The position numbers and the translations under genes are program-made. The notes under the pieces are model-generated. The model ran no database searches, had not been told where the DNA came from, and worked only from the letters and a program-made list of their open reading frames with translations. A stretch of 64,000 nucleotides of DNA from Blasia pusilla (lineage: Eukaryota): assembly GCA_050084515.1 (NCBI GenBank), contig CM114271.1, forward strand, positions 9,424,001 through 9,488,000, written 5' to 3'. This document shows, piece by piece, positions 39,486-60,032 of this stretch; position 1 is the stretch's first letter, and every line of letters starts with the position of its first letter.

Positions 39486-42400
39486 ATGGATAATTATGTG
39501 AATCTCACTTGTGGCAGTCATCTAGCGGCCCTTCCTCAATCAGAAATCGTTCGACCGCAAGCTCGTGAGTCTTTCATACCAGATGATGAAAATTTTCTCT
39601 CAATTCGATTTCTTCTCCAAATTGGAATCATGTTTATGTCCAAGGATGTTAGGGTGGACGGTACGGAGGACATAATAGTTGAGACAATCCATCCAGTGAT
39701 TGCAGACCGTAAAGTATGGAATCTCCTACCTCTAGCAAATGGTCAATACAGAGTTTACGGATTGCCTCTGAATTCCTCAATTTCCCAAGTAGACGGTCGA
39801 GAATTTCCTAGTGCACCAAGCTCTACATTTGCAACTCCTAGCTTAGTAGATCCGGCATTGACTCCAACTTACACGTTCATAACAATGTTGTTCTTCCTGA
39901 AGACATTCCGGATGTCGTCAACCTCAGTGGATCTGTCCGCCTACTCGTTCCTCTTGCAAGTATCAGGCAATAGTTTGCTATCGTCTCTCGCCTTGAAAAT
40001 GTTGAAGCACATTTTTGTCAACGAGCTGCCGCCCACGTACGATGGTAATTGCATTTTTTAGTTGCCTCCACTTGCTGCTTCTGCTCAAAAGAAAGATGGA
40101 GGACACTTGAAGGGTATGGACAGAAAGTCTGATTGTCATCGATGGTGTAGGCTTCAACGGACTAGTGCTTCAATTCTAGATGATCCTTGGATTGTCTCCT
40201 GCCGCCAATGCGTTGGAGCCTTGGAGTGTAGAAGTCCAGCATGCCCATATCTAGAGCGCAACGGGTGGGTCAATACGTCGCAATTCCCCCCCAAGAATGC
40301 AAAAACTCCATATGAGGTCGGTGCCACCATACCGCCGGGAGGCCATCGATGTCCTCATTGTCAGGCATCCCCTTTATGCCTTGGAGCATGTTCTGCATAC
40401 ATATTTTTCATTTTCCACGACTAGGGTTTGATGTCCGAGTACACAAGGCCGGCAGTTCATGTTGGCTCCCACACTAATCCTGTGACCGATGCAATTCAGA
40501 GACACATCAAGGAGGATGTGGCAAAGAAAATGGTCGAGGTCTACAGAAACTCCATATGAGGTCGGTGACCGGGTTCAAAGCCCAGAGTGATCAAGTTAAC
40601 AACAATATCACAAATTTGTGAACAATTCCTTGGAATCCCTGGACAAGGCGAGATCACGGTTGTTGAGGAGAAACAACTCTGGGAGAATCTCGCATTTCTC
40701 GCTGATCTTGAATGCTTCCGGAATTTGCTACGTCAAATACGGGTACTGGATGGAAAGACTGCCGAAATGGATGAAATTGCCAGAATCAAGGCCAACTCAC
40801 TCTACTCCAAGGCTGCAAGGATAGCAAAACCTTGAAACATGCCATGGAATGCCAAGAAGAACTTCATGGGTGATGGAGGAAGCATGCGATTGAGGGGAAG
40901 TACAAAGAGTTATGCTCTTGGCATAGTTGGTGGACTGTACGAATGAGACAATGGGGAAACTTCATGCGGCAGGTGAGTTCAATTTTTTGTCTTATCGAGC
41001 TCACGCTGAGAATTGTTTGAAAAGTTGCAGCTCAAGTTGAGAAGCGTGGGCACTATAGGATTTCAAACCAAAGAAACCAAGCAACTTGTCGGATGCGATA
41101 GGTTGCCCTAGTGTGCAACCCGTTGGAAATGGACGGGTTGCCTCAATGTGCAACCAGTCGGAACCCAACGGGTTGGAAGTCGCATGGCCAAATTTACTTG
41201 CAACCCGTCGGAATCAGACGGGTTGCCTAAGAGTGCAACCAGTCGGAAAAGTCAGAAATCGACGGGTTGCATCAAGAATGTTGGTGCAACCCATATACAA
41301 GTATGCAAGTTGCATGTATACAAGGCGTGCAAATAGTTTGATCCGGATGGGTTTTGGATGACTTGCACTTGGATCTTCCTGCCCAGAGTGGCCAAAGGTT
41401 CTTGCAACCCGTCGGAATTGGACGGGTTGCAGTAGGTGGTTCCTGGGTGTTGCAACACGTCGGGACCCGACGAGTCGCAAAGTCATTTATGGGATGCCTT
41501 TGACTTGCAACCCGTCTCATTCCGACATGAAGCTTTTTTCTCATACGTTGGAGCTATTTTGGTTCCCTTCTCACATTGCCGTCGTTGCAGGGATTGAACA
41601 TTCATGAAAATTCCTTCTGCCCCAACATAAGTGGAGCAGAAAGTGTTCATTCCTCCTAGAGGTCGTCACAAGCATGCCAAAAAATTTCACTTGTGGAGGC
41701 ATGCCAAACAATACCAGGCAAGAGCAATCCTACAATGTGCAGCATCCCATATCTTCCTCACAAAAGGCATAACAAAAGGAAGGGGGCCTTTGATCTACGA
41801 GCTCTATGTGAGGGCGGTTGTGAGATCGGGTGATGAGAAACTATATGTGTGAAAGCCTTCAATTGGTGCGTAGCACGAACTCCCCTCGAGCAAGATGTAC
41901 ATATTGGTAGGGATATTTGTGGGTGCGTTTCAAGACGTCCCATACAGATGGTGGTAGAGCAGTCCGAGCGACATTCGTGGAGACCAGATAAGTATCTTGA
42001 CTTCAGGCAGGTGAAGAGGCAGCATCGAAGAACGAGCCTGGTGATTGATTTGGATGAGGAAATCATGCCGCCCAGCTATTTGGAGACCCCAGATTGCTCC
42101 CAAATCTGTGATGCATTAACTTCTCCAAAATCAGTGAATGTTTTATTTCAAAAGCCTTCCGTTGCTGGAAGTTCGCAACATATGGTTGCTTGGGTGGTTC
42201 ATCAGTATGGGATTCCGGTCATTGAGGTGGATTGCAACCTCAAACGGTGGCATATATCTCAGAGCAACCCTAGACGTGGACCTACTTGCAAGGCAGGATT
42301 TGATGGCATTAGGAGAGCATGCGGCACTTTCCTAAATAAGAACTATACAAGGACTGGACGACCACTCCCTGGATTTTTGGGACCTCAAAACCTTTGATCT

Positions 42401-43097
42401 TTTCACGAGGACCGAGGATCAATTGAAGTTCTTCTTCTGCCCAAATGAATCCTACGCTTTCCAAAAGTCTTATCCGGCTCCCATTGGAGCTTCAAGGAAT
42501 ACACCCACGATTTGGCCCATTGCGGCAGGTACGAATTGCACTCAAGACAAAGTGGACAATCTTACAAGTGCCGATTTCATACTTGTAGATAGAGGAATTT
42601 TGGAGCATGTTCGCATTACAGAGACCTTCGCATTTCGTATTCAACCCAAGATTGATGTGAATATGTATCCAGAGAAGGTGGATGATCTCAATCCACTATT
42701 TCTGTTTGAGTCTAGAAATGGGGTGAAGAGAAACATAATGTGTAGGCCAACGGTGGAGAGAGCAAAGCGAATTGCATCAGCTCGGGAGGCAAAATTGGAG
42801 ATCATCGCCATGAAAGATGTCCAGAGTGGCAATGGAATAGGAAGGATGTATTGGTTGAGGAACAACACTGTAAATTCAAGTGTCACAGGGGTGTATGTGG
42901 TGCACATCTGTTGCTTTCCCACATGTTCATGTGATGACTTTGTCCAAAGAGAAACAAGTGGGAAAAGGTATTTCCCTTGTAAGCACATGTACTATGTGTT
43001 GCTTGTATTTTTAAGAGAGTCAGAGGTAGGAGTAGGAATCCACCAACCAATTTTGTCCCTCAAAGAAGTGCGAAGTATTTTAAACAAACCACTTTGA
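39486..43097 (+). pseudogene. Mutator-like transposase, copy C (~0.5-kb deletion of the catalytic core at ~40798)
   Basis: GCM-like region in ORF 40062-40424; intron ~40973-41590; intact SWIM CSCDDF...CKHM in ORF 42423-43097. Confidence 0.82.
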
Positions 43098-43511
43098 GGA
43101 TGCAAAATGAGGTTTTAGATTGAACTTTCAGTTTTCCAAAACCTTCGCTTTGAGCTTGAACTCTATTTAGCCCATGGAAAATGATAGATTTTTTCCAGAC
43201 CTTGGATGGAAAAAGTGATTGGTCCCACAATTATGATTCCAATGGATTTTTCAGTTTTCTAAATTTTGTGCAATTTGCAACTCGTCGGACTCAGATGGGT
43301 TGCCAAAATGTGGAAGAGGAAAAAAAAGCTATGGGAGTGCTTAAGAACTGAGCAAAAAAGTGCAAAAAAGTGACACAAAAAGTTTCCTCTCTTCAACCCA
43401 ATGGAAAATCTCTTCAAATCTCAGGAAACTCTCTTCAAAAAAAGTATCTCTTTGGGTTAAAGGTAGTTTCCTCTCTCCTCTCTTCCTCTCTTCCTCTCCT
43501 CTTACCGCACC

Positions 43512-45427
43512 TCTTCAAACTGCCAACGTCTTCTGCTTTTACCTCAGAGACAAATACAGTTTTGAGTCCCTTATCCACATGGTCATAAACACGAGCACCC
43601 ATGGTGAACCATCCATTCAGCACTCTGTAGCAAATATCAAAGCTTACCCAACTCCCGTAGAGATCTTCCCCTTCCCTCATTCGATCTATAAGATCGAGGC
43701 CACTCCACGGCTCTGTACTTGAGATTTTGAAGACATAAGCCCTGAATCCTTTGCCTCCCTGTCCATGAACTACCATCTCTAAATAAATGGAAATCTATAA
43801 TTGACCTTGATTCTAGCAATGGCATCCATTTTGGCCATCTTTCCATCAAGTACCCGTATTTGACGTAGCAAGTTCCGGAAGCATTCGGGATCAGTGAGAA
43901 ATGCAAGATTTTCCCAGAGTTGTTTCTCCTCAGCAGCTGTGATCTCGCCGTGCCCAGGGATTCCAGGCAGTCGTTCACAAATTTGTGATGTTTTTGTTAA
44001 CTTGATCACTCTGGGCTTTGATCCCGGAAAGAGTTTCTATATACCTCGGCCATTTTCTTTGCCACATCCTCCTTGATGTGTCTCTGAATTACATCGATAA
44101 CAGGATGAATGTGGGAGCCAACATGAACTTCCAACCTGGTGTACTCTGACGTAGAACTGACGTCATGCACAATGAAAAATATGTATGCATGACATGCTCC
44201 AACGTAGAAAGAAGATGTATGACAGTGAGGACATCGATGGTCTCCTAGCGGTATGGTCGCACCGACCTCATATGGAGTTTCTGCAATCTTTGGGGGAAAA
44301 TTGCGACATATAAACTCGCCCGTTGCACTCTAGATACGGGCAGCATGGACTTCTACACTCTAGGGCTCCAACGCATTGGCGGCGAGAAACAATCCAAGGA
44401 CCATATGGTGTCGATGTCCTCACTGTCATACATCCTCTTCCTAGTCGTTCCTCTTGCGAGTATCGAGCAATAGTTTGTTGTCGTCTCTGCCCTTTAAAAT
44501 GTTCAAGCACATTCTTATCAATAAGTTGTTGCCCACGTACGATGGTAATTGCATTTTTGAGTTGCCTCCACTTGCTGGTCCTGCTCAAAAGAAAGATGGA
44601 GGACGCTTGAAGGGTATGGACAGAAAGTCTGATTGTCATCGATGGTGCAGGCTTGGACCATATGTAAGAGGATGTATGATAGTGAGGACATCGATACCAT
44701 ATGGTCCTACTTTCAATGGACCGTACTAGTCCGTTGAAGCCTGCACCATCGATGACAATCAGACTTTTTGTCCACACCCTTCAAGCATCCTCCATCTTTC
44801 TTTTGAGCAGGACCAGCAAGTGGAGGCAACTCAAAAATGCAATTACCATCGTACGTGGGCAGCAGCTTATTGACAAGAATGTGCTTGAACATTTTAAAGG
44901 GTAGAGACTACAACAAACTATTGCTCGATACTCGCAAGAGGAACGACTAGGCAGAGATAGGGCCCGGTTGGTGTCCGACAGATCCACTCAAGTTGATGAC
45001 ATCCGGAATGTCTTCAAGAATTACAACATTGTTACGAACGTGTGAAGTTGGAGTTGATGTCGGATCTACTGAGATGGGAGTGGCAAACGTAGAGCTCGCT
45101 GCACTAGGAAATTCCAGACCCTCTACTTGGGAAACACAAGAATTCAGAGGTAAGCCATAAACTCTTTTGACCATTCTTGAGAGGTAGGAGATTCCACACT
45201 TTACAATCTGTTATCACTGACTGGACTATCTCACCTACAATGTCCTCCGTATCGTCCACCCTAACATCCTTGGAAACAAAGATTGTTCCAATTTGGAGAA
45301 GAAATCGCAGTGAGAGGAAATTTTCCTTCACTGGTATGTAAGACTCATGAGCTTAAGGTCGAATTATTTTTTATTGAGGAAGGGCCGCTAGATGACTGCC
45401 ACAAGTGAGTTTCACATAATTATCCAT
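43512..45427 (-). pseudogene. Transposase 5' half with an internal inverted duplication (copy D)
   Basis: MDNYVKLTCGSHL...WVSFDICYRVLNGW...DVGSLK; cut at the copy C end. Confidence 0.8.
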
Positions 45428-46707
45428 TCCCAAATGATTCCATCGGGTGGAGAATGAGAATAAGAATGAGAATGAGAATGTTTAATTTATAGTGAACAGT
45501 GACCACTATTCTCTTGATAAAATTTGACTGACAAGATGTTGTTTGGTAGGTGAGATTGTCTGACGCAATAGATTGAATCCTGTTGCAACCTATTGGAGTC
45601 CGACAAGTTGCAAATTTTGGGACCTGGACACGTGGTTGCAAAGCCACGGAGTGCCATTGTCTGTTAGAGTCCGAATGCAACTTACAACCCGTCAGAGTCC
45701 GTTGGGTTGAACGCGGTTGTCACTTGGTATCCCCTGCATGTGTGACCTGTCTGATTCTGTTGGAGTCAGGATCCAGGGGACCTCGCATGGATTTCCTACG
45801 ACAACCCGTTGGACTACGACGGGTTGAAAAGGTACCTCACCTCGCTTTCCCTTTTGGAGATAACCGAGTTGCGGGTGGATCTCGCGTCGATTTCCCTTGT
45901 CCAGTAAACCGTGCAAACCATGAGGGACAGACGAGTTTTTTAGAGACCGTGCCTTAGTTTCGCCGTATGGTGGGAACTGTTCAACCCATGGTAGACCTTG
46001 TAACCCGTCGGAGATTGACGGGTTGCTTGGGGACCATGCTTTGTCAACCCGGATGAGGAAAGCAGGCAACTCGTCGGTCTCCGACGGGTTGCCCGGGTAC
46101 CTGGCCTTGTAACCCCAAGATGAGGTAAGCGTGCAACCCGTCGGTCTGCGACGGGTTTCCCGGGTACCTCGCCTTGTTACCCCAAGTTGAGGGAAGCGTG
46201 CAACCCGTCGGTCTTTGAAGGGTTGCATGTCTGACGAGGGGGACAAGTTGCACGTTTCCCACGTGCAAAGTTCCATAACGGCCCACATTGTCATCGGTAC
46301 AGTAATTCTAACGTCCCAACGGTCAGCTCAACGGCTCAAAAAGTATTAAAGACATAGATTTCACTCATTTCCCTTTTTTATTTCATGATTTCAGGTGCTC
46401 TTCCTCCCAGTTGTTGAGGTTAGCTTCTCTTATGGCCAAGCCGGTTACATTTTGACCCCTTTGTTGGAAGGTAACAAAAATCCAACTTCCGACGCTTTGA
46501 GGGTCCGATTTCGGCAAGCCTCTCTGCTTGAAGGTGACAACGCTTTACCACACAATGCTTGGAGAGTTGGTTTTAGGCACTCCATCAAAGCTTCTAGGGA
46601 TCTGTTGTGCACAAGAGCAGCTAACATTATCGAGGAGGAAGAATTGACCCAACGTGCACGATGACGAGGAAGAAAACACAAGCAACAAAGGTAGGGAGCA
46701 TCACTCC

Positions 46708-47935
46708 TGTGATACCCATAATTTTTTACTCTTGAAGAATATATCTTTTTATTCAACGAAGACTCTTGTATATTATGATTTTGATTATGATTATTTATTA
46801 TTATGAAGAAGAATAAGTGAACCATGAAGCTCCTGGGACAAGGCAGAGAGATGGAAGATCAAGGATTTGCCTTAGAGGAGAGGAAAACGCAATAACGAAG
46901 TATCAAGACTCAGAACGAAGCTTAACGAAGCCTAACGAAGATATACGAAGCTTTGTCTACAAAGTGCTTCGCTACATAACGAAGCATCACGAAGAAATGA
47001 AGAACGAGGTACTTCGCTCTTTAACGAAGCGGGAAACACTTAGTACGAAGCACAGGAAATAAGAACGAAGCATGGAGTACTTCGTCCTCTTGAAGTCCAA
47101 CGAAGCGAAGCTAAGAAGGATTGTGATTTCAAGAGACACATGTTAAAAAAGTTAGACTAGGAAAGGGCGCAACCCTTTGTATCAAATTGGTAGTTAGAAC
47201 AATTTTGTACTGCGGATTCACGGGGATCATAGGAAGAGCTAAGAGAACCATAGATCTAGGTAGTTAGAAACAATGAAGAGACACTAGCTTCATCAAGAAC
47301 GTTTCGGATCTTTGGATCACTTCCACTCCAGCGAATATTTAAGAAGCAAAGCAGAAGTTATTATCATCATTCTCTTACGAAGTCCTTATATTGTAGGAAT
47401 GGTCCGAGCAAGAGAGTAGTACCCTCTCGAGCTTGTATACACTTTGAAGCTTTCTCGTTCTTGATAGAGTAGTAAAGCAGTCATTCATTCATTCTGATGT
47501 GCGATGCTTATGTCTGAGTATTCTTTTTGGATCTGCAAAATGAGGAGTGAATCAGGAGAACCTTTATCATCAGTGAAATAATCAACATGAGTTGTAGGAA
47601 ATCTGTTTGACAAAGAGTAACCTGCCGAGACGGATTGAGTTCCGAAAGTAGGAGAAGCCAGCTTCTGTGTTGAGATCTCTGTGAGGTTTCTTGATGTCGA
47701 GAGGAAAATCTACCTGAACATGTTGTCAATTCCACTAGAGAGAACCGAGAAAAGATCCTTTGGTACTAAGAAATATCAGAAGATATTGATAAGACATTGA
47801 ATATAACTCACACACATTTAAATACAATTATTACAACAGAATTGTAATTCCGAACTCTCTTTTCATCAAGCAATGATCCTCTTGGGGATCGAACTTACTA
47901 AATCGACTATCAAATAGAAACACTTGTACATTACA
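46708..47935 (+). repeat. Solo LTR, family 3
   Basis: TGTGATACCC...TACATTACA; 5-bp target-site duplication ACTCC at 46703-46707 and 47936-47940. Confidence 0.92.
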
Positions 47936-49090
47936 ACTCCCAAGTCCATCAGGACTCCTGCGTCTCCATCTTCTGGTCCTCGCTCGGCGAATGAGATAAG
48001 GCAACCAGAAATAGAGGAGCGGGAAAGGGAAGCAGATATGCACAGGCAAGAGTTTCTGGAAAAACTTTCTGGAGGAGGTCGCAAAGCAAAACTCTGAGGC
48101 TTAGGCATCGAAGGCCTTGAAGGAAAGATTTTTGGACAAGAAACGCGAGAAGAAGTGTCTTGATACCTCCATCAGGAGAGCAGAATTTTCGAAAGCTCGA
48201 AGAGAAAAAACAATCACCATTGAAGAAAGCCTTTCCTATCCAACACATAGTGTTGAGATGCACGAAATGTCTCCGATGAGGTATGGGGACACCATGAATT
48301 TAAAATCGATTGAGGAAAGTGCCCAAGTTCAAGTGACTGATGACAAGGTCATGAGGAGAGCAAGTGTGGAGATGGTGGACATATCTGAAGAAGCAGGAGA
48401 AGAGTCTTCGTCGTTATTGAGCCCGGTGGAAGAAATCGACCTTTATCAAATCGATGAGTTTCCCATGGACTTGCCAACTCCTATCTCAGAGCAGCTAGAG
48501 GGCCTGGACACCGACCCAATCTTTGAGCGGGTAAGAAGAATTCGGGTTATGTGAAAGCTCATTATATAATACATTGGCAAAACACATGCGCTTATTGATT
48601 TTGTCCCCATTGTGGCAAGTTGTTAAGTAAATGGCAATGATGGAGGGCCAAAAGTCCCCAAGAATTCCACTATGTCAACTGTGGACAATGGAGTACATTC
48701 ACAAAATTCAGTTGGAGGAGGACATTGCAAAGCTGAAACATCGGCAGAAACGACATCCTACGTCGACGGCTTCCCTCCGTTCTATGTTCAGCCTTACGAT
48801 GAACATGGAACCCAAGCTCTGGTGACGGAAGAGGACCTGGAGGCGTTGGACACATTCTAGAGGATGAGGGATCAAGAGTTCAAAAGAGCGATTGAAGGAA
48901 CCCAATTTAGCTGGATGCGGAACCTCCACTTCTTCATCTGGGATGGGAACCACAAGAACATGGCGTGGATGCAATTTGCAGAGGAGCACCCAAATTCATT
49001 GGAGGAGCATTTTCGCGTGAGGGCAGTCGTGCGCCATCCATTTCCTCATCACATGGCAACGGTGGAAATGGCAATGCATACGATGAATAC

Positions 49091-50174
49091 GTAAGTTTCC
49101 TCATTCTTATGTTTGATTGCTTCAACCAGTCAGAGTCCAACGGGTTGCATAATTGGAAAGCTTGAAGATGGGAAGGAATGATATGAGTCTCTTGCCCCCA
49201 TCCTCTTTGAGGTTAAGGTCATAGTCAAGCAAACCGTCGGAGTCCGACGGATTGGCTGGTGCCCAAGCATACCACATTAATCCGGGATACTAGGACTAGT
49301 CGAACATCGACGGGTTGAAAAATGACTGCATGATTTATTTGTTCTACAATATGTCAAACTCCGATGAGTTGCACAATGAGGGGTAAGAAATCATCGAACG
49401 CCTTAAAGTAACTCCTCGGAGTCTGACGAGTTGCTGGACTGTCCCCTATTTTTTGGATACTTTTGGCTGAAAGCAACCCGTCGGACTCCGACGGGTTGCA
49501 TTTTCCCCCTAGGGCAAGCCGCTGGAGTTCGACAGCTTGGTTTTAGGCATCCAATTCCAACTTTACAAGGCCGTTGCGCAACTCGTCGGACTCCGATCGG
49601 TTGATATGGGCAATTTTTATCCAAAAACTTGTCTTGGAATGGAAGTCATTCTACAACTGGTCGGAGTCCTACGAGTTGGAACCAAGGAATAGGAGTCATT
49701 CTCCACTTGCACCAGAGAGTCAAGAATAGAGAGTGCAACCTGTCGGACTTCCATGGGTTGCAACACTCTCGGGAGATTTCAAGGATGCCCAATCCGTCGG
49801 AGTCCAATGTGTTGCGACAATCGCTTTCACTTGCAGTGTCTTCGACAAAAAGTGTATTTCGTGCAACCCATTGGACCCCGACGAGTTGCAACACTTATCT
49901 ATGTAGTACCTTTTGGATCCCGATGGGTTGACAGTATTGCAACCCGTTGAAGTCCTACGGGTTGCAGGAAATACATTTTTCGTCGAAGAGACTACAAGTG
50001 AAAGCGGTTGTTGCAACCCGTCGGACTCCGACGGATTGGGCATCCTTGAAATCTCCCAAGAGTGTTGCCACCCACCAGAGTTTGATGGCTTGCACTCTTT
50101 GTTCATCACTCTTTGGTGCAACCAAAAAAAAACCGATAGGTTGCAGTATTCTTACCTTGTGTTTGGATTTGCAG
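49091..50174. repeat. Palindrome-rich intron 2 (copy D)
   Basis: Perfect GCAACCCGTCGGACTCCGACGGGTTGC at 49473-49499 plus many variants; internal duplication, ~49700-49900 vs the reverse complement of ~49930-50120. Confidence 0.8.
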
Positions 50175-52805
50175 GATTGTATCCGAGGGGAACGTCGCCC
50201 ACCACTGGATCTAGGATTGCGATTGAAGAAGGTGCTTACGATGTACCCGGTAGAGTACAAGGGATTCCTGGGTGACGATCTAGTTGATGAGATGCTGGCA
50301 AAGGGAGCTCAAATTAAGAAGAAGACCTGGGAAATACCTTCATTTCCCAAGATGCAGCCATCACGATTCTCTGTTGGTCCAAGATCCAGGCCGCCAAGAA
50401 GAGTGCTATGTTGGAACATGAGAGAAGGGAGAATGTGTCTACGTCGGAATGGGAAAAATTTATTCAGGTTGCCTTATCTGCAGCTACAAAGTACACTGCA
50501 AGAAAGATACAGCGTAACATTGCAATTCTCAACCCCAAACTTGGCTTGGAGTTTTACAAGGATCTGAAGGAAATAATCAAGCGCCAACGAAAGAGAGACA
50601 AAGACCCACAAGGTCAGATTGGAGAGAAAGTGTCTTTGGACCGCGGGCACAAGTTTGCATTGTATGGCATATCCGAGTTAAGGTAAATCCGATCGATGAA
50701 AATCAGTCTCGAGGGCATTGAGGCGCCAAAGCATGCGGCACACCACCCTATGGGAGTTTCCGATCCAATAATCTCCCATTGGCTATGGGAATGGTCATTC
50801 TGGGACGCGCTATGCCTTCTCGGGAAGTCCATGATCGTGGGTCTACAAGCGGAGCTGAAGAAGATTGAGCCACTTCCATAGGAAGCAAACCTAGAAGTTG
50901 GAGAAGATTTTGAACTCTGGCTTGATGACATCAGAGATAAGTTGACAAAAAACCTTGGATTCAGGATGATGTTCAAGAATCACATCCTCCCTCAGGAAGA
51001 TCTGGACGAGGAAATAGATGCAATAAAATGGGATTTTGCAAAGAAGAAGCGGGATCTTCATGAGCAGGCGGCCGAGTCATCTTGACAAAGAGCTGCCCAA
51101 CGGATGGTGTACAGGTACCTCATCAATTGTGCAAATGCAGGTACATGGCATAAATTTTTGGCAACCTACAAATTGTGGGCTTCTCCGCCTGATGGAAAGG
51201 GATTCTCCATGTACGACATGGAGATGAGATAGGGCATGTCTGACTAGGAGGTAATAAATTTTCCAATCTGGTTGGACTTCAACCACCCACAGGACATTAC
51301 AGACAAAAATCTACGCATGGTCTGTGATGCAATGGTCGCTGGTAGGGACAACATTCCAAACTTCGTGAAGCTTGAAATTTTTTTTGAAGGAGATACAGAG
51401 GAGCAAGCCCTTGAGACAGCGGAGTTGGTGGCAAAGGTTGTCACCGCCAAAGACAAATCCACAATGGATTTGAAAGCCAAAGCAAGGGGATCGAGGAATT
51501 CCTAGGCCAAGTCTTCGAGAAAAGAGGTTGAGTCTTAAAGGCAAGAGGCGGAGTCATCAAGGCGAGAGGGCTCGACTAGGTCCTCGTCAAAGAAAACTCC
51601 TGTGGAGTCTAAGGTAACGGAGACTCCAACCAGCCGAAAACACACTCGGGAGAAGCGAAAGAGGGAGGCGTCTGGTTCGTCCAAGGGAGGAGATAAGGAT
51701 GTGGAATACACTCCATCATCCTTGGGGAGGCATAGGGAAATGACCACCACGACAAATTTCCTTCTTCACTTGACTCATCTTGTCAATGAACTGCAAAGTT
51801 TCAGTTCTCATGAGTCGACACTTGCCATCGAGAAACTGACCGTGCTAGGGCGAAAAATCCTTCGAAACGGGCACGCCCCCTAGACGGTGCATGGGGTTGT
51901 TGAGGAGGTGGCGGTGGACCTCCTCATTGCAGATTTTCCTTATGGGTTTTGCTTGTGGGACAACAATCCGTCTGACATTGTCCCAGATTGGAATGTCCCG
52001 CTTTCCTATGACCAGATCGCTCTATTGTTTTCTTTTGCTGACGCGTATCTCAGTGACAGTGGTTGTTTCTTGGTCCTCATTGGAGGGAGCAAAGACGAGC
52101 TCTTCAACCTTCAGTGCATGAAGAGGTCGCTACTCGTGTCGCTAAAGTGGAGGACGGCGCAATCGTGGGTCATAAAAAATGAGTATCCACTCATATCTGC
52201 GACGAATCAAGTCCGGGTAAGTTCACTTTTTGAACGAATTGATTTTGTTGAGAAATACAACTTGTTGCAAATTCACCTTAGTAACCAGACGGGTTGCAAG
52301 TACAAATCCTTTTGCACTTGTGTCTGCAGTGATGCAATCCGTCTGAAAGCGACGGGTTGCAAATTCACCAACATGTCTCCAGTGATTGCAACCCGTCGGA
52401 ACCTGATGGGTTGCAAGTAGCATTGCTTTTCCACATGTTTCTGGAGTGATGCGACTCGTCTGAAAGTGACAAGTTGCTCTCATATTAGGAACTTCTCAAC
52501 TTTGAACAATTCCATTGAGTTGTAAGCCAACTGTCCAACTCCAATAGGTTGCGGTTCTATCCAGCAAAATGAGCAACTTGTTGGCTTCCGACGGGTTGCT
52601 CATAGGCAAAGAATCCTCTTAGAGTTGTAAAGCAACCCATCAGAGTGCGACAGGTTGCTATTCTATTAGGCCTATAGGCCAAGTTCTGATGGGTTGGTAA
52701 TCACTGGGGACTAGTAGGACAGGTTTGAAAAGCAACCCGTCGGACTCCGACAGGTTGCTCTTGTGTCTAGCCAAATCAGCAACCCATCGGTTCCCGACGG
52801 GTTGC

Positions 52806-55211
52806 ATCTTGTGTTACTTTATGGAGAGTCAACCATGGTCTTTATGCACCATTTGTTGCACAGTGTGCACAGCTTTACGATCTATGACGGCATCAAAAAA
52901 TATTATGAATCGGTTATTCCAGTAAAAACCGACGGGGATTGTCGTAAAGTCCAATGTCTCTTTCTCCTACACAAAATTTGAGAGCGCTTCCGCGCTGATT
53001 TCTCCCAACAAAAATGTAAAATCTATGAGAACACAAATCAGCAAGCTACATGGTGTTCCCGAGAGCATCAGCATGGAGCAATCTGCCCCCATACTCAATT
53101 CCTATCGAAAATTGGGTAGCGCTTCCGCGTGCCAATCTCCCGTACAAAAAATCAGCAAAGCAAAACAACAAACTTGCACGACTCTTGCTCTGGTGAGCAC
53201 TCCCATGAGCCATGAAGTGGGGAACATGGTCCCCCAACCTACACCAAACATCGAGCAACCAGCGAGCTCCCCCATGAAGCTCTCTCACTCACTCATTCTC
53301 TCTTTGTAAAATAAAATTCCAATTCAATCTCTCTCACAACACCATAGTTCTCACATGTGTGCACTCTCACATGTCTCTCTCAATGTCAAACCAAAACCAC
53401 TCTCCTAATGTCAAGAGCCAAGGAGGTGACTTGGGAGCATAGGTTACCACGGAGAGAGCTTGGGAGAGGGGAGGGGTATACCTCAAGGAGAGAGAGCTTG
53501 AGAGCTCATTCTCTCTTTATTGAACCTCTTGGCATGAGGCAGTGGAGCTATGGTCTTGCTTGCCTTGTGTGTGTAACCCAAGCCTCTCACCTGATGTACG
53601 AGGTCAAGGGCCTCTTACGACAAATATAAAGTTGATCATATACTTGAAATGGTATTTACCTAAAATAGGAAATTTCTCAATATGGCTCCAAATGAGCTGA
53701 AACGAAGGGGAAACCTGCTCTCTCAAGTTTTCCACGACTTCCTCAACCGACTGAGCCTGTCCTCCACTACTCACAAAGGCGCTCTACTAGATCTCACCAA
53801 TCTATCCTAAAAGACGTGACATGGTGGAGGAAGCCGGGAAGAACTTTGAACAACAGATGATCAAAGAAATATCTTATGTCAACAAACACTGGAAACGCCC
53901 ATTTGATAACCATGAAAAGCCACTCCCGGAACTACCACCAAAGATTACAGTCGATCTTGAGCAGCTTACTCCATTTGCATCCTTGGATGTCTTTGTCCAG
54001 AACAAAGTACTTGGGACTTCGTTGGTCGTTGTTAAGTGGAGAGAGAAAATGAGGAATCACACACCCAATATCATTAACAAACCTTTGACTATTCATGGCC
54101 ATTTTCCGTTTGCAACTGAGTTTGAATATAGGATTAGAAGACACAATTATGGATTTAGATATAGCACCTTGAAGTGTTCGCCGGGGTGGCTCGCATTTGA
54201 GGGAGGGGGTATGTGATACCCATAATTTTGTAAATTTGCGGATTAATACATTTTCATTCAACTTGAGTATGGATCTCTTCAAGGATGAAGACTATTTGAA
54301 GTAAATTTTGCAGATATAAGACTGTATGAATATTATTTTTGAGTATTCGATATTATGAGAAGTATTACAGTAGAGTATGAAGCTCCTAGGATAAGGCAGA
54401 GAGGTAGAACATCAAGGATTTGCCTTGGAGGAGAGGGAAATAAATTCACGAAGTCTAAAGACCAAAAGCAAAGCTTAGCAAAGACAACAAAGCCTAATAA
54501 AGAACCTGTTTATGAAGTGCTTCGCTCTTGAACAAAGCATGATGAATAAGAAGAAGCAGAAGTTCTTCGCTCTTCAACGAAGCACCAAGACGAAGCAGCA
54601 ATGCTTTGCGGAAGAATGAAGCACTTGGAACAAACGCAAAGAATGTTGCGCTTCATCTTCAAAAGAAGAGGAAGTGCTTCGTCTTCAAAGGAAGAAGAAG
54701 AGATTGTGACTTCGCAACGAAGATAAGACTGTTTGCGATTTCAAGCCGCATACCATTAGAGTAGTTAGGCTAGGAAGAGGCGTGACTTTTCTGACTAGAT
54801 AGGAAGGTAGGACAGTTAAGATTAGCGGATTTGTAGGGATCACAGTAAGAGTCAAGAGAATCGTAGATCAAATTAGTTACAAGATCCCAATAGGTACTAG
54901 CTTCACAAGAAGCGCTTTAGGACTACTATTGTTTGGAAGAATATTTAAAGACCATCAAGGTAGTTACTTTCATCACTCTCTTACAAAGTCTTTATGATGT
55001 AGGAATGGTCCAAGCAAGAGAGTAGTACCGTCTCGTGCTTGTATATACTTTGAAGCTTTCTCATTCTTGATGGAATAGTAAAGAATTCCCTTCCTTCATT
55101 TTGATATTCATGAATCATCTTATTGGATCTGCAGAGTGAAGAGTGGATCACGAGAGCACTTTCACCACTAGAATAATCAACAGCGAGTTGTAAGAAATCT
55201 GTTTGATAGAG
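52806..55211 (+). mobile_element. 3' part of an LTR family 3 retroelement: unassigned internal region, polypurine tract and truncated 3' LTR (54212-55211)
   Basis: GAGGGAGGGGGTA followed by TGTGATACCCATAA; LTR homologous to 46708-47610. The left boundary is uncertain. Confidence 0.6.
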
Positions 55212-58200
55212 AGGGGGGCTGGTATTCTGGCAGGAGAGAGGAAGAGAAGAGAGGAAGAGAGGAGAGTCTCTCTTAAAAAAAAAAGGGCCAAATCCGCCTC
55301 CTCTCTTCAAAACTTTTTGACATATTTGAAATTTTTGTTTGCTTTCAAATTCATTAAATCTTTAAAAGAGAGTAGGTAGTGGTCCACATTCGGGCCTTAA
55401 GAAACCTCCTTTTTTCAGGGGGCGAAAAACAAGTAGACATCATAAGACCACGAAAAACATTTTTCCATCACTCTCCATGTGAGCCTAAGTTTCTTCACAT
55501 TTCTTATCTCAGTCTACAATAAGGTGTGCCCAAGGGTATTTTTGTTGGAGGACCATTGGCAAATAATTTGACCAAAACTAGCAATCTCATCTCAATGAAA
55601 GGTTCAAATAAAGACTCTAACGATGGTCTCAACAGACTGTGGTGCTTTCCAAGGTTTAACTTCTCAGAATATTTGGTTGACATTATGGATTGACATCTCT
55701 TCTTGCAAAAGAAAGGCACAAGGAAATGCTTGTAAATGATTGTTGATTCTTCTTGCAGAAGGAATCAATACTCATCATACATTATGGAAAACCATTGGCA
55801 ACACTGTACCAAAATGAGAATTGTTGACCTTCCCCCATTCCCAAGTGTCTCTAAAGTGTTAATGTGTCATGAGACCTCACCCGAATGCGCATCGGGTACA
55901 ATGCCAACCTCTCTTTTTGTAGGGATTTTTGCCTTCATCATGCCCTCCCTTGAATTGCTCCATAATGAATGGTGTCTTCTCAAGACCAACTTTGTGAAAT
56001 GTGAACACACGAGACGATAATAGAACCAAAATATTGTTAGCTGTCTAGAGTAAAGAGGAACTGATGTCCCTTTATTCAGATCATAAATTTGAGAAATCGA
56101 GAAGCTGCACCCCTCCCAATCCGTCAGAATTTTACAGGTTGCAACTCTTGCAACCCGTTGGAATCAAATGGCTTGCACCCCTTGCAAGCAAGCTTACCAT
56201 AACAAAGGAAAGATTTTGAGAAGTGATTCCATTCCACCCTGCACCCACACAAATCCAACAGGTTGGGAATCCGAAATGGCAATTCTACAGGTAGTAGGAA
56301 TCTAGCACGTCTTAGAGAAGAAAAGAAGCCTTCAACTGGTTTGACGATACTAGGGGAACGAGCCAAGAGTGAGGAAGCCCGCCACAATGCCTCAGAAGTT
56401 GGTCTCATAGGCAAAGAGTCCGATCACTCAAGTAGCCAACCTGTCGGAATCCGACAACTTGCCTGGAAATGGTTAAAAAGTTTCAGTGGTCAAAAAGTGG
56501 AAAGTTGCAACCCATCAGAATCTGACGGGTTGCAAAATAAACATTATGAGTAGCTAGACGAATACAATCGACTAGTCCAAAAAAAATATTCAGCAAACTT
56601 TTACAAACACCATTATCGTTTGGAAAAATCTTGTCCTTTATTACATCCGAAGGAAGCTCGGAAATGTACATTTGATCTAGTTTATGATTTCTTCAGCCTC
56701 GTCATCTACAAATTTACTCCTAACTCTCCTAGGTTCATGTACAAGAGGAATGTCCAAGGATACAAGTGGCTCCTTTGGTCGATTGTAGACGGGGATCGAA
56801 AATGTTGGCAAATTTGAGAGCCTTGCCCCCCCCTAGGTACACCATAACAGTCCCATGTAACCTGATTTGAGTCCCACCGCCTTCCTCGGCAATAAATCTT
56901 GTACGCTCTCCAAGGTGACACCTATTCAATATCAATATGTGCTCCGTCCTTGGAGATACCATCATGGCAATTCGATAGGTAGTAGGAATCCAACACGTCT
57001 TAGAGAAGAGAGGAAGCCTAAGACTTGTTTGACAAAACTAGGGGAAGATGCCAAAGTGAAGAAACCCGCAAGAATGCCTGTAAAGTTGGACTAACAGGGA
57101 AAGAGCCCGATCACTCACGCAGCCAACCTGTCGGAATCCGACAGGTTGCCTGGAAGTAGTTAAAAAGGTGCAGTGGTCAAAAAGTGAAAAGTTGCAACCC
57201 GTAGCTATCCGACGGGTTGCAATATAAACTGTCGGAGTACATAGACGATCACAATCGACAAGACCAAAAAAGATATTCAGCAAACTTTTACAAACACCAT
57301 CATCGTTCAAAAAAATCTTGTCCTTTATTACATCCGAAGAACTATACCTTTGATCTATTGTATGAATTCTTCTGCCTCGTCATCAAATAAATCCCTACTC
57401 CAAAACGCTGCAGTCAATATGGGTCCTTGAGTTCTTTGAACTCACTCGACATCGTCCGAGAGCTCTTCCAGAATTAGTGTCGGCCTTGCCCTCCCGATTT
57501 TTGGAATCATGGGAAGTGACAATGGTGTCACTACCAATGGTGGGTTTGGAACCAGAGCTCTTGGCTTTGGAGGAGAGTTGTACGCCCCAACTAGCCTGTT
57601 GTAATTTGCCTTTGCCTCTTTGCAAAGGTCAAACAGTTCCTACCTTCCCTCAAGGCAGAGAATGTTCTTGCCACTCTTCCGGGCGCCTCTGATACTCGCC
57701 CCTAAAAGGCCCACTAAGTCGAACACCAAGTCACTCGGCCTTGAGCAGAGCTCGATGAGCGTTTGCATCAGCGCTGACAACTTTTCCCTTCCTCCAAGTA
57801 AGGGGGTACCATTTTGCATGTAAATTCCTGGGGGGGAATCGTATAAACTATCTAAGCTGTATCCATCGGAGGATGGATCCACTAGATCGAGGATCTGAAA
57901 CACTTGGAAGTTGTGCTCGGGCCTTACAAAACAATAGACAAAGGAGTAGTCCATCTGTAAAGAAGCAGGTTGGAAACAATGTCAACAGCAAGAAAGAGCT
58001 ACTTTCAGTATGCAACAACAAGAAAGGTCTACTATCAGTATGGTGACACAATGTGCAACTCGTCCCCAAAGAACTTCGCTTAACCCCAGAGAACTTAGTT
58101 ATCGTTCTAACATTGGAGCAACCTGTCAGAGTCCGACGGGTTGTTTTACAAGTGTTAGTGATTTTTTTTGCCATGAGCAACCCGTCGAAAGGCGAGCGGT

Positions 58201-60032
58201 TGTTGGCTTAGAGCAGCCCATGGTTGGCTAAGAGCAATCCGTCCCTTTTAGACGGGTTGTATCATTCCGAAAACACAAGGAAAATCATAAGTACTTGCAA
58301 CCTGTCGGAACCCGACGGGTTGCATTCACCCAATGGAGACTTGCGGTAAATTTGCAACCCGTCGCTTTCAGATGGATTGCACCAGCAAAATCTCCAGCTC
58401 AGACAATCTGACGGGTTGCATGCAGATAGGCAACTTGTTGGAGCAAGACAATTTGTATATGGATTTAGAGCCCTTACCCGGTTTTGACTCGTCGCCGATC
58501 TGAGTGGATACTTGTTCTTGATGACCCACGATTGCGCCGTCCTCCACTTCAATGACATCTTGACGCACTGCAGGTTGAAGACCTCATCCTTGCTCCCTCC
58601 AGTCAAGACCAAGTAACAACCCCTGTCACTGAGATAAGCGTCTACAAAGGAAAACAGGAGCGCGATCTGGTCATAAGAAAGAGGGACATTCAAGTCTGGG
58701 ACATTGTCAGATCGATTCTCGTCCCACAAGCGCAACCCAGAGGGTAAATCAACGATGAGGAGATCCACCGCCACCTCCTCGACCTCCCCATGGACCGTCT
58801 AGGGAGCATACTCGTTTTGTTGAAGCTTCCGTCCCAGCGTTTGTCGATGGTGGGTGTCGACGCTTGGGAATTGAAACTTTGCAGCTCATCTAGAATATTC
58901 GTGTAGTGAATGATGACGTTGTCCAGGTCGTGTTTTCTCTATGTCTTTCCAAGGATGATGGAGTGTATTCCACATCCTGGTCTCCTCCCTGGGACAAACC
59001 TAGCGCCTCTCGCTTCCGCTTCTCCCGAGTCTGCCGTCAGCTTGTTGGGATCTCTACTACCTCAGACTCTGGTGGAGTCTTTTTGGCGCACGACCTGGTC
59101 TGACCCTCTCTCCCCGCTCGCCCGGACGATTTCGCCTCTCGCCTTGAATTCTCAGCCTCTTTTTTGGAAGACTCGACCTCGGAATTCTTTGATCCTCTCG
59201 CCTTAGCTTTGAGACCCGCTATAGATTTGTCCTTTGGCGGTGACGACCTTGGACACCAACTCCGCTGTCTCGAGGGCTTGCTCCTCCGCATCTCCTTCGA
59301 AAAAGTCTTCACGCTGCACGAAATTTGGGATGTCGTCCCTACCTACAACCATTGCATCATACACGTGTCGAAGATTTTTATCGATGATGTCCTTGGGGTC
59401 GTTGAAGTCCAACCTGATGGGGCAATTCTCCACCTCCCAATCAAACATGCTTTGAGCCATCTCCATGTCGTAGATGGAAAATTTCTCTCCATCAGGCGAG
59501 AAGCCCACAATTTGCAGGCTGCCGGTATTTTTCGCCACGTACTTGCATTCTTACAATGGACGAGGTACCTGAACACCATGTGTTGGGAAGCTCTTTGTTG
59601 AGATGCATCGGCCGTGTGCTCTTGAAGATCTTGCTTTTATTTGCGAAATCCCTTTTCTTTGCCTCTATTTCTTCATCAAGGTCTGCCTGAGGGAGGATGT
59701 GATCCTTGAACATCGTCCTGAAGCCTAGTTTTTTTATGGGCTTATCCCGGATGTCATCCAGCCAAAGTTCAAAATCTTCAACACTCTCCACGTTTGCTTC
59801 CTCTGGAACTGGCTCTATTTCTTTCAGCTCCGCTTGGAGACCCACGAGCATGGACTTCCCGAGAAGCCGCAACCCATCCCAGAATGACCATTCACGGAGC
59901 CAGTGGGAGATCACTGGTTCAGAGACACCCTGAGGATGGTGTGCCGCCCTCTTTTGGGCCTCTGTGCCCTCGAGACTGATTTTCATCAGTCGGATTCTCC
60001 TAAATTCCGAAATTCCATACAAGGCAAGTCTA
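55212..60032 (+). mobile_element. MULE-like ParB-MTase DNA transposon, copy E (MTase-side end present, interrupted by copy F)
   Basis: End GGGGGGCTGGTATTCTGGCAGGAGAGAG...; MTase exons on the minus strand. Confidence 0.85.
57442..60032 (-). pseudogene. ParB-MTase gene, 3' part of exon 3 (58478-60032) and exon 4 (57442-57954), copy E
   Basis: VDLLIVDLPSG...; GGREKLSALMQTLIELCSRPSDLVFDLVGLLG; phase-0 GT-AG intron with palindromes. Confidence 0.82.

Follow-up and report, generated by a model that had tools for sequence, protein, structure and literature searches.

A transposon-borne gene of the liverwort Blasia pusilla encodes a methylase-like domain that has probably lost canonical catalysis

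Background

The closest described systems are the Plavaka, Mutator and Zisupton transposons of red algae. Their accessory genes are reported to include PAG2, which joins a PF01555 methylase to a SET domain, and PAG3, which joins a ParB-like region to a 2OG oxygenase, this ParB-like assignment also being weak (HHpred E 0.29); the accessory proteins of Plavaka were proposed to bind adjoining inverted-repeat arrays (bioRxiv 10.1101/2025.02.11.637652). Eukaryotic genes of the beta-class bacterial type are represented by Marchantia MpDN4MT1a/b, which carry TSPPY (bioRxiv 10.1101/2021.02.12.428880), and by bdelloid rotifer N4CMT (PMC8885841, PMC10406627); they are reported to be single-locus host genes with a canonical (T)SPPY and shown 4mC activity.

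In this work we describe a gene found in a 64-kb window, the whole stretch of Blasia pusilla DNA that was analysed. Compared by description with what the preprint text gives for PAG2 and PAG3, the Blasia unit is likewise a giant eukaryotic DNA transposon with a PF01555-type non-transposase gene, tandem inverted-repeat arrays adjoin this gene, and the copies are mostly degenerate and weakly transcribed. However, the Blasia protein would combine a putative ParB-like region and a methylase-like domain in one chain, without SET or 2OG domains; its methylase signal is sub-threshold and its motifs IV and I are non-canonical, unlike PAG2 as described; and the host is a land plant, with a putative partner transposase of no assigned class. 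DN4MT1 also comes from a liverwort, but the Blasia gene differs from both DN4MT1 and N4CMT, as reported, in being a degenerate-motif transposon gene. We consider it probable (about 0.68) that this is an accessory gene, distinct from the transposase, of a DNA transposon family with a high copy number, and that its methylase-derived domain is likely non-catalytic. Its six copies here are dead.

Gene structure and copies in the window

The preliminary description placed the gene at 46661-52216. This span, here called copy F, does hold exons 1-3, whereas exon 4 lies outside it and was read from copies B, G and H.

46661-52216, forward: copy F, exons 1-3 of the four-exon gene
46661, forward: start of copy F, MTRK
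46661-46702, forward: opening 14 codons of exon 1 (MTRKKTQATKVGSI), aligning with the starts of copies A, B and C
46703-47935, forward: solo LTR within exon 1, foreign to the gene, recognised by its TG...CA ends and sequence
47936-48530, forward: remainder of exon 1, a Glu/Lys/Arg-rich charged stretch and then an acidic one, with one frameshift
48531-48618, forward: intron 1, donor GTAAGA, acceptor changed from AG to AA
48619-49090, forward: exon 2, putative ParB/Srx-like region with FIWDGNH(R/K)
49091-50174, forward: intron 2, phase 2, with palindrome copies and extra insertions
50175-52216, forward: exon 3, which completes the exon-2 domain and goes on to a long helical/charged linker and the methylase-like N-terminal half
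51884-52216, forward: methylase-like N-terminal half, with DFPYG at the position of motif IV
51914-51946, forward: VDLLIADFPYG
52217-52480, forward: initial 264 bp of intron 3

Homology with the other copies is lost at 52480, inside intron 3, and copy F has no exon 4. Its solo LTR (1,233 bp, with a 5-bp target duplication, ACTCC) is bypassed by 111 DNA reads joining 46702 to 47936; further copies of this LTR lie at 17050-18277 and 54337-55213. DNA joints such as 49096 to 49473 indicate that the extra insertions of intron 2 are absent from many genomic copies. Exon 2 of copy F has one frameshift and two stops, and exon 3 has eight in-frame stops over 50318-52216, and its beginning carries further stops and a frameshift.

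The window holds six decayed copies (A, B, C, F, G and H) of a single repeat that encodes the gene:

24340-28334, forward: copy B
24340-24960, 25059-25531, 26277-27474 and 27822-28334, forward: exons 1, 2, 3 and 4 of copy B
57442-60035, reverse: copy G, with a 5'-truncated exon 3 at 60035-58478 (motif IV DLPSG)
58477-57955 and 57954-57442, reverse: intron 3 and exon 4 of copy G, with one in-frame stop in exon 4
61824-64000, reverse: copy H, with part of exon 3 at 64000-62720 (motif IV DLPSG, frameshifts), then intron 3
62279-61824, reverse: exon 4 of copy H, its first ~19 codons missing
9891-10870, reverse: copy A, with exon 1, intron 1 and codons 1-85 of exon 2, then truncated
35686-38275, reverse: copy C, with partial exons 1-2 and exon 3 to just short of motif IV

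Copy C has two stops and one frameshift, and in copy B the remainder of exon 3, including motif IV, is deleted. The sole lesion-free exon in the window is exon 4 of copy B (170 codons plus stop). All six copies are pseudogenes, and none in the window is functional today.

The reconstructed exons encode 207, 158, ~680 and 170 aa, about 1,215 aa in total. The splice sites are canonical and phase-consistent at all three introns (GTAAG...YAG): CGG|GTAAGA...ACAG|GTG for intron 1 (phase 0; 98 bp in copy B), AC|GTAAGT...CAG|G for intron 2 (phase 2) and CGG|GTAAG...TTTACAG|ATG for intron 3 (phase 0). They are kept in most copies that hold them, the exceptions being two mutated acceptors, those of intron 1 in copy F and intron 2 in copy B. 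Moreover, the open frame of the Riccia protein P0001 stops at the end point of exon 3 (..KQFK|V..). Divergence between distant copy pairs, assessed by chi-square over codon positions, is two to three times faster at third than at first and second positions in all four exons (p 9.5e-5 to 2.3e-14), but not in introns and flanks. Individual values were 9.5e-5 for exon 1 (B against F), 2.3e-7 for exon 2, 2.3e-14 for exon 3 (C against F) and 2.1e-13 for the methylase-like N-terminal half (F against G and H), with no periodicity in the introns and 3' flank (p 0.91 and 0.98). Across exons 1-3 the RNA depth was 0-3, and no RNA-supported junction was among the joints listed. The four-exon gene of ~1200 aa is thus borne out by its GT-AG introns in the phases first proposed and by this periodicity. 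While the transposon family was active, purifying selection acted on the gene, and therefore the protein did something for the element.

The mobile unit

The gene forms part of a unit of ~11.9 kb, in which it stands head-to-head with a gene encoding a putative transposase-like protein with a SWIM finger.

18302-22947, reverse: partner gene, head-to-head with copy B, ~1,200 aa, transposase-like, with a C-terminal SWIM-type zinc finger
12373-16647 (forward), 38725-43502 (forward) and 43507-45644 (reverse, partial): further copies of the partner gene
28335-30150, forward: 3' non-coding part of the unit in copy B, to the shared end
46000-46226, unstranded: 67-bp tandem array between the divergent genes at copy F (TRF, palindrome scan, blastn)
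11330-11684, 23344-23963 and 38736-38897: equivalent tandem arrays

The partner gene scores below the cut-off against SWIM PF04434 (E 0.032), and a search for its relatives found none. Each unit of the 67-bp array holds a 27-bp palindrome, GCAACCCGTCGG-N3-CCGACGGGTTGC, which occurs 71 times in the window as opposed to none in 20 shuffles; of these 71, 66 fall in non-coding stretches of the unit, and neither the exons nor the transposase ORFs contain any.

The unit end of copy B recurs at 55235 (copy G) and 60055 (copy H), and its CT-rich terminal tract, read outward, is similar to the SWIM-side end read likewise. The proposal that the gene is spread by a mobile element holds: the copy map, discrete ends common to three copies on each side of the unit, and a DNA read depth of 180-650 with ~1% of a WGS run sampled support a repeated mobile unit present in at least tens to hundreds of copies. 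It might be argued that a host gene family was amplified by segmental duplication, as the partner gene fits no assigned transposase family, and neither clean terminal inverted repeats nor target-site duplications could be established. The depth and the discrete ends speak against this, as do the occurrence of copies in both orientations, nested or truncated within one another, the SWIM-finger gene and tandem array that always accompany the gene, and the independent decay of all copies, which make segmental duplication most improbable.

Methylase descent of the C-terminal domain

Exon 4 carries REKSPALMQTLIELCSRPGDLVF(D/N)LVGLSG...GRNILCLE (copies B, 27822-28334; G, 57442-57954, reverse; H, 61824-62279, reverse). 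It matches positions 169-219 of the 221 of Pfam PF01555 with E 0.0075 and 16.7 bits (cut-off 26.7). M.RsrI (PDB 1EG2) or DpnA (PDB 5HEK), to whose motifs X-I-II(-III) exon 4 aligns, account for four of the five PDB sequences matching at E<=10, three PHROGs methyltransferase families match, and PF01555 is present in each of the 30 nearest ESM Atlas clusters (score 0.93). At E<=1 there were 69 matching phage records; among the 15 matches listed, 14 fall under annotated DNA methylase genes and one is unannotated. Against a custom HMM built from five phage PF01555 enzymes, exon 4 scored 27.6-37.1 bits (best of 4,000 shuffles, 8.3), and hhalign gave a probability of 97% over the methylase C-terminal half. 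No single exon 4 match reached its curated threshold; all these sub-threshold matches agree in identifying exon 4, judged by its sequence, as the C-terminal half of an N6/N4 DNA methylase of the beta class.

For the exon-3 half, no profile match was found in Pfam, PHROGs or NCBIfam, PDB searches gave no match, hhalign failed to align it to the DPPY region, and none of five phage tblastn matches lay in methylase genes; it scored 1.5 bits against the custom HMM. In a whole-library HMMER search its profile matched only two Riccia liverwort proteins, and kinship with Marchantia DN4MT1 was not shown. Co-folded by a language-model folder, the two halves gave ipSAE values of 0.68, 0.68 and 0.66 (best of three controls, 0.00), with modest partner pLDDT (52-58), at least 67% of contacts shared between runs, and a SAM ligand that lies outside the coverage of the calibration, where solved complexes reached the mark in 51 of 78 cases and mismatched pairs in 2 of 108. 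In the model, an exon-4 strand (residues 15-19) pairs with YLVL (62-65) and WRTAQSW (85-91) of exon 3, and the interface includes VAVDLLIVD (9-17) and DLVFDLV (84-90). Class I methylases of the beta-class type have the sheet order 6-7-5-4-1, and the predicted strand contacts fit this sheet. Passing the co-fold shows, at the level of a model, likeness to solved methylases. Neither AlphaFold2 model was usable (pLDDT 37.8 and 42.1).

A chance or convergent resemblance, with the domain adopting another Rossmann-like or an unrelated fold, would accommodate matches that each stay under threshold, an N-terminal half without similarity to methylases and the failed AlphaFold2 models. Nevertheless, five libraries converge on one family and, within its profile, on one C-terminal region, and the custom HMM scores against the shuffles, the hhalign probability and the sheet order of the co-fold contacts make it quite improbable. 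Assignment to the N6_N4_Mtase lineage in the beta-class order, as first suggested, is thus retained: motifs IV-VIII precede X-I-III, as in PF01555, from which the Blasia domain differs in falling short of the gathering score, in carrying DLPxG for (D/N/S)PP(Y/F/W) at motif IV and DLVGLSG for D(P/F)FxGSG at motif I, and in being split by a phase-0 intron within a 1,215-aa eukaryotic protein.

Two other early proposals were weakened or not sustained. For prokaryotic derivation by horizontal transfer, the likeness to phage and bacterial methylases amounts to ~30% along 60-85 aa, within exon 4 only, which is too little to build a phylogeny on. For the ParB/Srx domain there was no match in Pfam, PHROGs, NCBIfam, PDB sequences or phage and plasmid tblastn, the AlphaFold2 model (pLDDT 37.8) gave no support, and the only lead, a weak one, came from ESM Atlas. 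Phage and plasmid ParB-methylase fusions exist and have the order proposed here, ParB-like then methylase, the ParB part being putative in Blasia; the five phage methylases nearest exon 4 that were fetched (224-351 aa) have no ParB region.

Catalytic motifs and activity

The string VDLLIAD(F/L)P(Y/S)G, previously read as a DPPY-like catalytic motif, is present, but only copy F has the Y of DFPYG. The other four of five family sequences (copies G and H and the two Riccia proteins) carry DLP(S/T/K)(G/H) and lack D-x-P-aromatic, which weakens the catalytic reading. The second-position Pro is missing in all five and the aromatic residue in four, the fourth residue being S, S, Y, T or K. Motif I reads DLVGLSG instead of DPFxGSG, the first Gly of GxG being Leu in all three copies. 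With such motifs canonical catalysis is doubtful, and it is most likely, on sequence grounds, that canonical base-flipping catalysis was lost from the domain. Erm and KsgA enzymes work with N-(L/I)-P-Y, and thus Leu at position 2 is not disqualifying alone.

From these motifs, the less likely reading would be that the protein is catalytically active, a SAM-dependent DNA amino-methyltransferase that makes 6mA or 4mC with an atypical active site and marks element or host DNA. This reading would agree with features kept in the C-terminal half (the Lys-Pro-like EK(S/L)P of motif X, the PGD-hydrophobic beta-1 strand, the SG in motif I and an acidic residue following GRNILCLE), with purifying selection on both halves and with a co-fold passed with SAM; moreover, red-algal transposon PF01555 genes are taken by their authors as N6-adenine methylases (10.1101/2025.02.11.637652). 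However, the losses in motifs IV and I, a variability of the fourth residue that is unexpected for a catalytic residue, and a catalytic half recognised by no profile render an active enzyme unlikely.

A non-catalytic domain would have an analogue in METTL14, a pseudo-methyltransferase in which the Rossmann methylase fold is kept under selection and the catalytic motif has degenerated. The parallel is no more than an analogy, as METTL14 belongs to another methylase family and the Blasia protein has no known partner enzyme.

Proposed role of the protein

The ancestral protein would have had a charged and then acidic N-terminus, a DGNHR-motif domain, a long helical linker and, at the C-terminus, a Rossmann domain derived from N6/N4 DNA amino-methyltransferases of the beta class, in which the motif IV-VIII half precedes the X-I-III half. 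We infer that this domain may act as a DNA- or SAM-binding regulatory module. A plausible, purely conjectural target would be the element's own 27-bp palindrome, which is arrayed beside the 5' end of the gene and scattered through the introns and the ends of both genes; binding to it would parallel the proposal for red-algal Plavaka accessory proteins. Red algae are reported to have transposons in which inverted-repeat arrays adjoin accessory genes of the PF01555 and ParB-like kinds (10.1101/2025.02.11.637652), and the Blasia family may be a comparable case.

Repeat copies and gene model

Blastn of positions 46000-53000 and 18300-30500 against the window located six copies of one repeat, which encodes a four-exon protein. 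Divergence between copies is 12-30%, and the copies are truncated or lie nested within each other:

9891-10941, minus strand: copy A
24130-28700, plus strand: copy B
35714-38346, minus strand: copy C
47936-52480, plus strand: copy F, the feature under study
57086-60035, minus strand: copy G
61547-64000, minus strand: copy H

Peptide anchors and junction sequences bore out the exon joins proposed in the preliminary description. They also agree with its protein of about 1200 aa interrupted by introns of phases 0, 2 and 0, the summed exons amounting to about 1,215 aa.

Table. Gene model (a slash marks the exon boundary)
Exon 1: M-T-R-K to PIFE(R/Q); donor /GTAAGA
Intron 1: 98 bp in copy B; acceptor ACAG/; phase 0
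Exon 2: VVKQMA to AMN-T; donor AC/GTAAGT
Intron 2: acceptor CAG/G; phase 2
Exon 3: IVSEGNV to (N/S)Q.R; donor /GTAAG
Intron 3: acceptor TTTACAG/ATG; phase 0
Exon 4: MDHSYVY to DDDE, then stop

The start codon of copy F is at 46661, and its exon 1 is broken after 14 codons by a 1,233-bp solo LTR (46703-47935) with TG..CA ends and a 5-bp duplication, ACTCC; 111 genomic reads of the same species label skip it, running straight from 46702 to 47936. The earlier reading of 46703-47935 as a coiled N-terminus was dropped, as this interval is the solo LTR. The same 1.2-kb LTR also occurs at 17050-18277 (minus strand) and 54337-55213. Copy F is without exon 4, because homology ends at 52480, within intron 3; this exon is known from copies B, G and H. 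Just upstream of the copy B start codon there is a 24-bp tandem repeat of 3.7 units (24164-24251), which in one frame gives a repeated 'RDDSSKRL'-like peptide and is probably 5' UTR.

The mobile unit and its partner gene

The unit extends over about 18302-30150, with ends common to three copies on each side. Similar CT-rich tracts are read outward at the two ends and the outermost bases differ; a CACTA classification was dropped, since the termini do not read CACTA. In the four copies that retain the 5' part (4/4), a large partner gene lies head-to-head with the methylase-like gene, and a 67-bp tandem array containing a 27-bp palindrome sits between the two. The partner gene is found at:

12373-16647, plus strand
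18302-22947, minus strand
38725-43502, plus strand

Its ORFs include some of 545, 423, 391 and 348 aa, with N-terminal Cys/His-rich motifs; inspection by eye also picked out a DDE-like stretch (FD..., FMADNAQ...). A C-terminal SWIM-like finger matched PF04434 with 14.2 bits (E 0.032), under the cut-off of 19.6; no MULE, KDZ or other transposase family of Pfam matched, and the PDB gave nothing relevant. A word-indexed search of about 5.8 billion protein sequences with the 545-aa ORF returned no relatives, which is weak evidence. The partner gene may represent an unclassified transposase lineage.

Sampling about 1% of one WGS run gave a genomic read depth of 180-650 over the methylase-like gene, against a single-copy share of at most about 5x, taken from 547 reads at least 99% alike. 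Therefore, the genome holds at least tens to hundreds of copies. The shared ends, the head-to-head putative transposase gene and this high copy number uphold the proposal that the gene is spread by a eukaryotic transposon.

Other repeats lie in the same window, whose content is eukaryotic and plant-like. The stretch 52896-54067 is very high-copy (DNA depth about 2,000 versus 180-650 for the gene) and gave the strongest RNA of the analysed stretch, 30-93 per strand class; the abundance of 'opposite strands' joints in 53408-53656 points to a repeat that forms hairpins. Three LTR retrotransposon polyprotein ORFs, two gypsy-like and one copia-like, were recognized by eye from RT, integrase and gag-like sequences, and the second gypsy-like polyprotein ends in a PHD-like Cys-rich tail:

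1776-5074, minus strand: LTR retrotransposon polyprotein ORF
6540-9146, plus strand: LTR retrotransposon polyprotein ORF
30246-35251, minus strand: LTR retrotransposon polyprotein ORF

The palindrome arrays

The 27-bp palindrome of the 67-bp array unit reads GCAACCCGTCGG-N3-CCGACGGGTTGC. Allowing two mismatches per arm, 71 copies were counted window-wide versus none in 20 shuffles, and all but three of the 71 (68) have a 3-nt spacer. They fall in the intergenic arrays (18), intron 2 (14), intron 3 (11), the gap between ORFs of the partner gene (15), two 3' regions (8) and elsewhere (5), and none of the 71 lies in an exon or ORF. Examples of sites are:

14425-14729
20298-20660
23344-23963
25614-26160
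41115-41478
49229-50039
58118-58323
62302-62578

The palindrome could serve as a binding site for a protein or form a hairpin, and the 'NPSESDGL' peptides that recur in many frames arise from it. Intron 2 of copy B has in addition its own 64-bp tandem array (5.5 units, 25549-25928), with the palindrome variant GCAACTCGTCGG-N3-CCGACGAGTTGC present in every unit; outside all the copies, a related stretch is found at 6215-6430.

Decay of the copies and past selection

All six copies in the window are dead relics, each with its own lesions. Exon 3 of copy F has eight in-frame stops between 50318 and 52216; copy B has six stops in exon 1 and has lost the end of exon 3; copies A, C and G are truncated and copy H is frameshifted. 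The only lesion-free exon is exon 4 of copy B. In distant copy pairs third codon positions diverge 2-3x faster than first and second positions, and introns and flanks were compared in the same way.

Table. Divergence at codon positions 1/2/3
Exon 1, B vs F: 0.146/0.161/0.306; p 9.5e-5
Exon 2, B vs F: 0.120/0.108/0.323; p 2.3e-7
Exon 3, C vs F: 0.181/0.164/0.338; p 2.3e-14
Methylase N-half (end of exon 3), F vs G and H: 0.117/0.085/0.348; p 2.1e-13
Exon 4, B vs G and H: 0.087/0.084/0.168; p 6.9e-4
Introns 1 and 3 plus 3' flank: 0.120/0.119/0.113; p 0.91
3' flank, B vs H: 0.129/0.128/0.132; p 0.98

The third-position excess indicates that the lineages diverged under purifying selection on the frame and then died. 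Among close pairs the periodicity of exon 1 was not significant (B vs A, p 0.071; B vs C, p 0.15), which fits recent neutral decay.

Three RNA runs with the same species label were aligned at 80% likeness. Depth was 0-3 over exons 1-3, and among the 15 joints listed (542 further joints exist) there was no splice joint with RNA support. Copy G reached a depth of 8-17 in exon 4 and in its 3' region. In all three runs RNA with the first mate on the plus strand, at depth 4-17, was seen at 56412-58169 and 61100-62271, that is, over exon 4 and about 1 kb downstream in copies G and H. Either 3' bias over a long 3' UTR or a separate transcript arising in the 3' region of the element could account for it.

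Exon 4 as a methylase-like half

The preliminary description had assigned the C-terminal part of the protein to the beta-class N4/N6 methyltransferase fold. This assignment holds for exon 4, where Pfam, PDB and PHROG matches are all sub-threshold; the exon-3 half, the region VAVDLLI.D.P.G...LSD.GC.LVL..G...W....W.I.N..P, matched no profile. Both exon-4 ORFs (2/2) matched PF01555 (N6_N4_Mtase) at its C-terminal end, profile positions 165-219 of 221, with 16.7 and 14.3 bits (E 0.0075 and 0.039), under the gathering score of 26.7; the other 15 pieces in the Pfam scan matched no methylase family. A profile of three exon-4 copies found five PDB sequences at E ≤ 10. Four of them belong to M.RsrI and DpnA, enzymes of the beta class, and their alignment covers motifs X-I-II. 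In the ESM Atlas, PF01555 was present in 30/30 clusters nearest to exon 4, and three DNA-methyltransferase families of PHROG matched it with E 0.003-0.02.

Phage sequences pointed the same way. Tblastn with exon 4 gave 69 phage records at E ≤ 1 (best 1e-2), and among the 15 matches listed of these 69, 14 lay under annotated DNA methylase genes and one in an unannotated record. Against an HMM built from five phage methylases, all of them PF01555 members (E 1e-24 to 1e-42), the exon-4 halves scored 27.6-37.1 bits while the maximum of 4,000 shuffles was 8.3 bits, a test that is partly circular because the references were chosen through exon 4. A protein-homologue search with exon 4 found no relatives (weak evidence), NCBIfam gave no match for six pieces, and the AlphaFold2 model of exon 4 (pLDDT 42.1) was too poor to use.

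The exon-3 half had no match in Pfam, PHROGs, NCBIfam or PDB. None of its five phage tblastn matches was in a methylase gene, its score against the phage-methylase HMM was 1.5 bits, and hhalign did not align it to the DPPY half of the phage methylases. PDB profile searches with this half, with or without its Riccia relatives, gave only chance-level matches (indoleamine dioxygenase, SRY, phage Gp39), and a protein-homologue search with the exon-3 piece found no relatives, again weak evidence.

The exon-3 half has structural support from a predicted co-fold with exon 4. With the exon-3 half as a separate chain alongside exon 4 and SAM, ipSAE was 0.68, 0.68 and 0.66, the best of three controls being 0.00; partner pLDDT was 52-58 (overall 52-63, modest) and contact agreement between runs at least 67%. 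The mark used is reached by 51/78 solved complexes and 2/108 mismatched pairs, a calibration outside which the SAM ligand falls. In the lowest-error contacts VYCFV, with which the strands of exon 4 begin, meets both YLVL and WRTAQSW in the exon-3 half, and the interface includes both VAVDLLIVD and DLVFDLV. Class I methyltransferases have the sheet order 6-7-5-4-1, and the predicted contacts fit strand 7 between strands 5 and 6 (at co-fold pLDDT 52-63). The motif order (IV-VIII, then X, I-III) fits the beta class by position. What such a pass shows, as a model, is a predicted likeness to solved methylases.

Catalytic motifs and Riccia relatives

An HMMER search of the whole library of 1.84 billion representatives with the N-half profile recovered two proteins and no others at E ≤ 0.001, both hypothetical proteins of the liverwort genus Riccia: one from R. 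sorocarpa (488 aa, E 1.9e-12) and one from R. fluitans (305 aa, E 2.8e-7). Both are exon-3-like fragments, and they share only 39% identity across the N-half.

Motif IV of PF01555 is (D/N/S)-P-P-(Y/F/W), and the SAM loop of motif I is D-(P/F)-F-x-G-S-G. At the motif IV position copy F reads DFPYG, copies G and H read DLPSG, and the Riccia proteins P0001 and P0002 read DLPTH and DLPKG; the canonical form is absent from all five family sequences. VDLLIAD(F/L)P(Y/S)G had been taken for a catalytic-type motif, a claim that these readings weaken: the fourth position is variable, and the aromatic is a private mutation of the decayed copy F, because the other four sequences read DLP(S/T/K)(G/H). Motif I reads DLVGLSG in copy B, NLVGLSG in H and DLVGLLG in G, against DFFAGSG in M.RsrI; the canonical loop is absent, the first Gly being Leu in 3/3 copies. 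From these sequences we infer that the domain descends from a beta-class amino-methyltransferase and probably no longer uses the canonical mechanism.

Exon 2 and the proposed ParB/Srx domain

Exon 2 contains FFIWDGNHR in two of three copies and FFIWDGNHK in the third. ParB/Srx proteins have a motif of the type G-x-x-R / DGxHR after a beta strand, and the DGNHR-like motif is short and insufficient alone to define this fold. For the exon-2 pieces and for P0003, which is copy B exon 2 read through its single stop (as X), none of Pfam, PHROGs and NCBIfam gave a match at E ≤ 1. The PDB gave one irrelevant match, tblastn no phage record and one irrelevant plasmid record, and the AlphaFold2 model with one stop read through as X (mean pLDDT 37.8) was too poor to use. 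In the ESM Atlas, an unaltered 72-aa ORF piece of exon 2 had 5 of its 30 nearest clusters in the PF02195-marked set (PF02195 being in 11% of members of the cluster shown) and 3/30 in the DUF6551-marked set, a weak ParB match to be taken as a lead only. The ParB/Srx domain of the preliminary description gained no support from these tests.

Discussion

We regard as real the gene itself and its introns, as well as its descent from methylases and its carriage by a transposon. Few transposons bring along accessory genes for modifying chromatin or DNA. The closest parallel comes from a Bostrychia moritziana genome preprint, which describes giant Plavaka transposons in red algae (bioRxiv 10.1101/2025.02.11.637652). 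According to that text, PAG2 pairs a SET domain with PF01555, whereas PAG3 joins an N-terminal ParB-like region (HHpred E 0.29) to a 2OG oxygenase and is adjoined by inverted-repeat tandem arrays. Homologues are also present in elements of the Mutator, Zisupton and Fanzor types, and the majority of copies are degenerate, with weak expression (bioRxiv 10.1101/2025.02.11.637652). The element described here shares with them a gene inside a DNA transposon and an adjoining inverted-repeat array, its partner being a putative transposase. It is the same kind of element in another lineage, with an architecture unlike that of PAG2 and PAG3 and with degenerate motifs. To date, PF01555-type and ParB-like genes joined in a cassette next to inverted-repeat arrays are described only for the red-algal giant transposons, in that preprint. 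Literature searches turned up no description of the present family and no counterpart from liverworts or from land plants of other groups.

Within the liverwort lineage, Marchantia has a bacterial-type 4mC methylase, DN4MT1, at work in sperm; MpDN4MT1 is a host gene that carries TSPPY (bioRxiv 10.1101/2021.02.12.428880). The (T)SPPY of the eukaryotic N4C methyltransferases MpDN4MT1 and N4CMT is absent from the present family, which reads DLPxG.

As to function, a single ParB-like and methylase-like protein could load on its own palindrome arrays and modify or shield the DNA (by 6mA, 4mC or non-catalytic occupancy), with escape from host silencing or guidance of transposition as the purpose. 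We consider this reading unlikely, with a probability of roughly 0.12; if true, it would make the element a land-plant counterpart of the red-algal PAG cassette, and its pool of transposon-borne beta-class methylase genes might also be the source of, or sister to, the liverwort sperm 4mC enzyme DN4MT1.

At the level of the window the message is modest: six relics, in which the attractive 'DPPY-like' motif is a private mutation of one copy. The family itself would offer a natural example in which selection maintained a methylase fold whose active site is non-canonical, and it would extend the red-algal cassette theme to the liverwort lineage.
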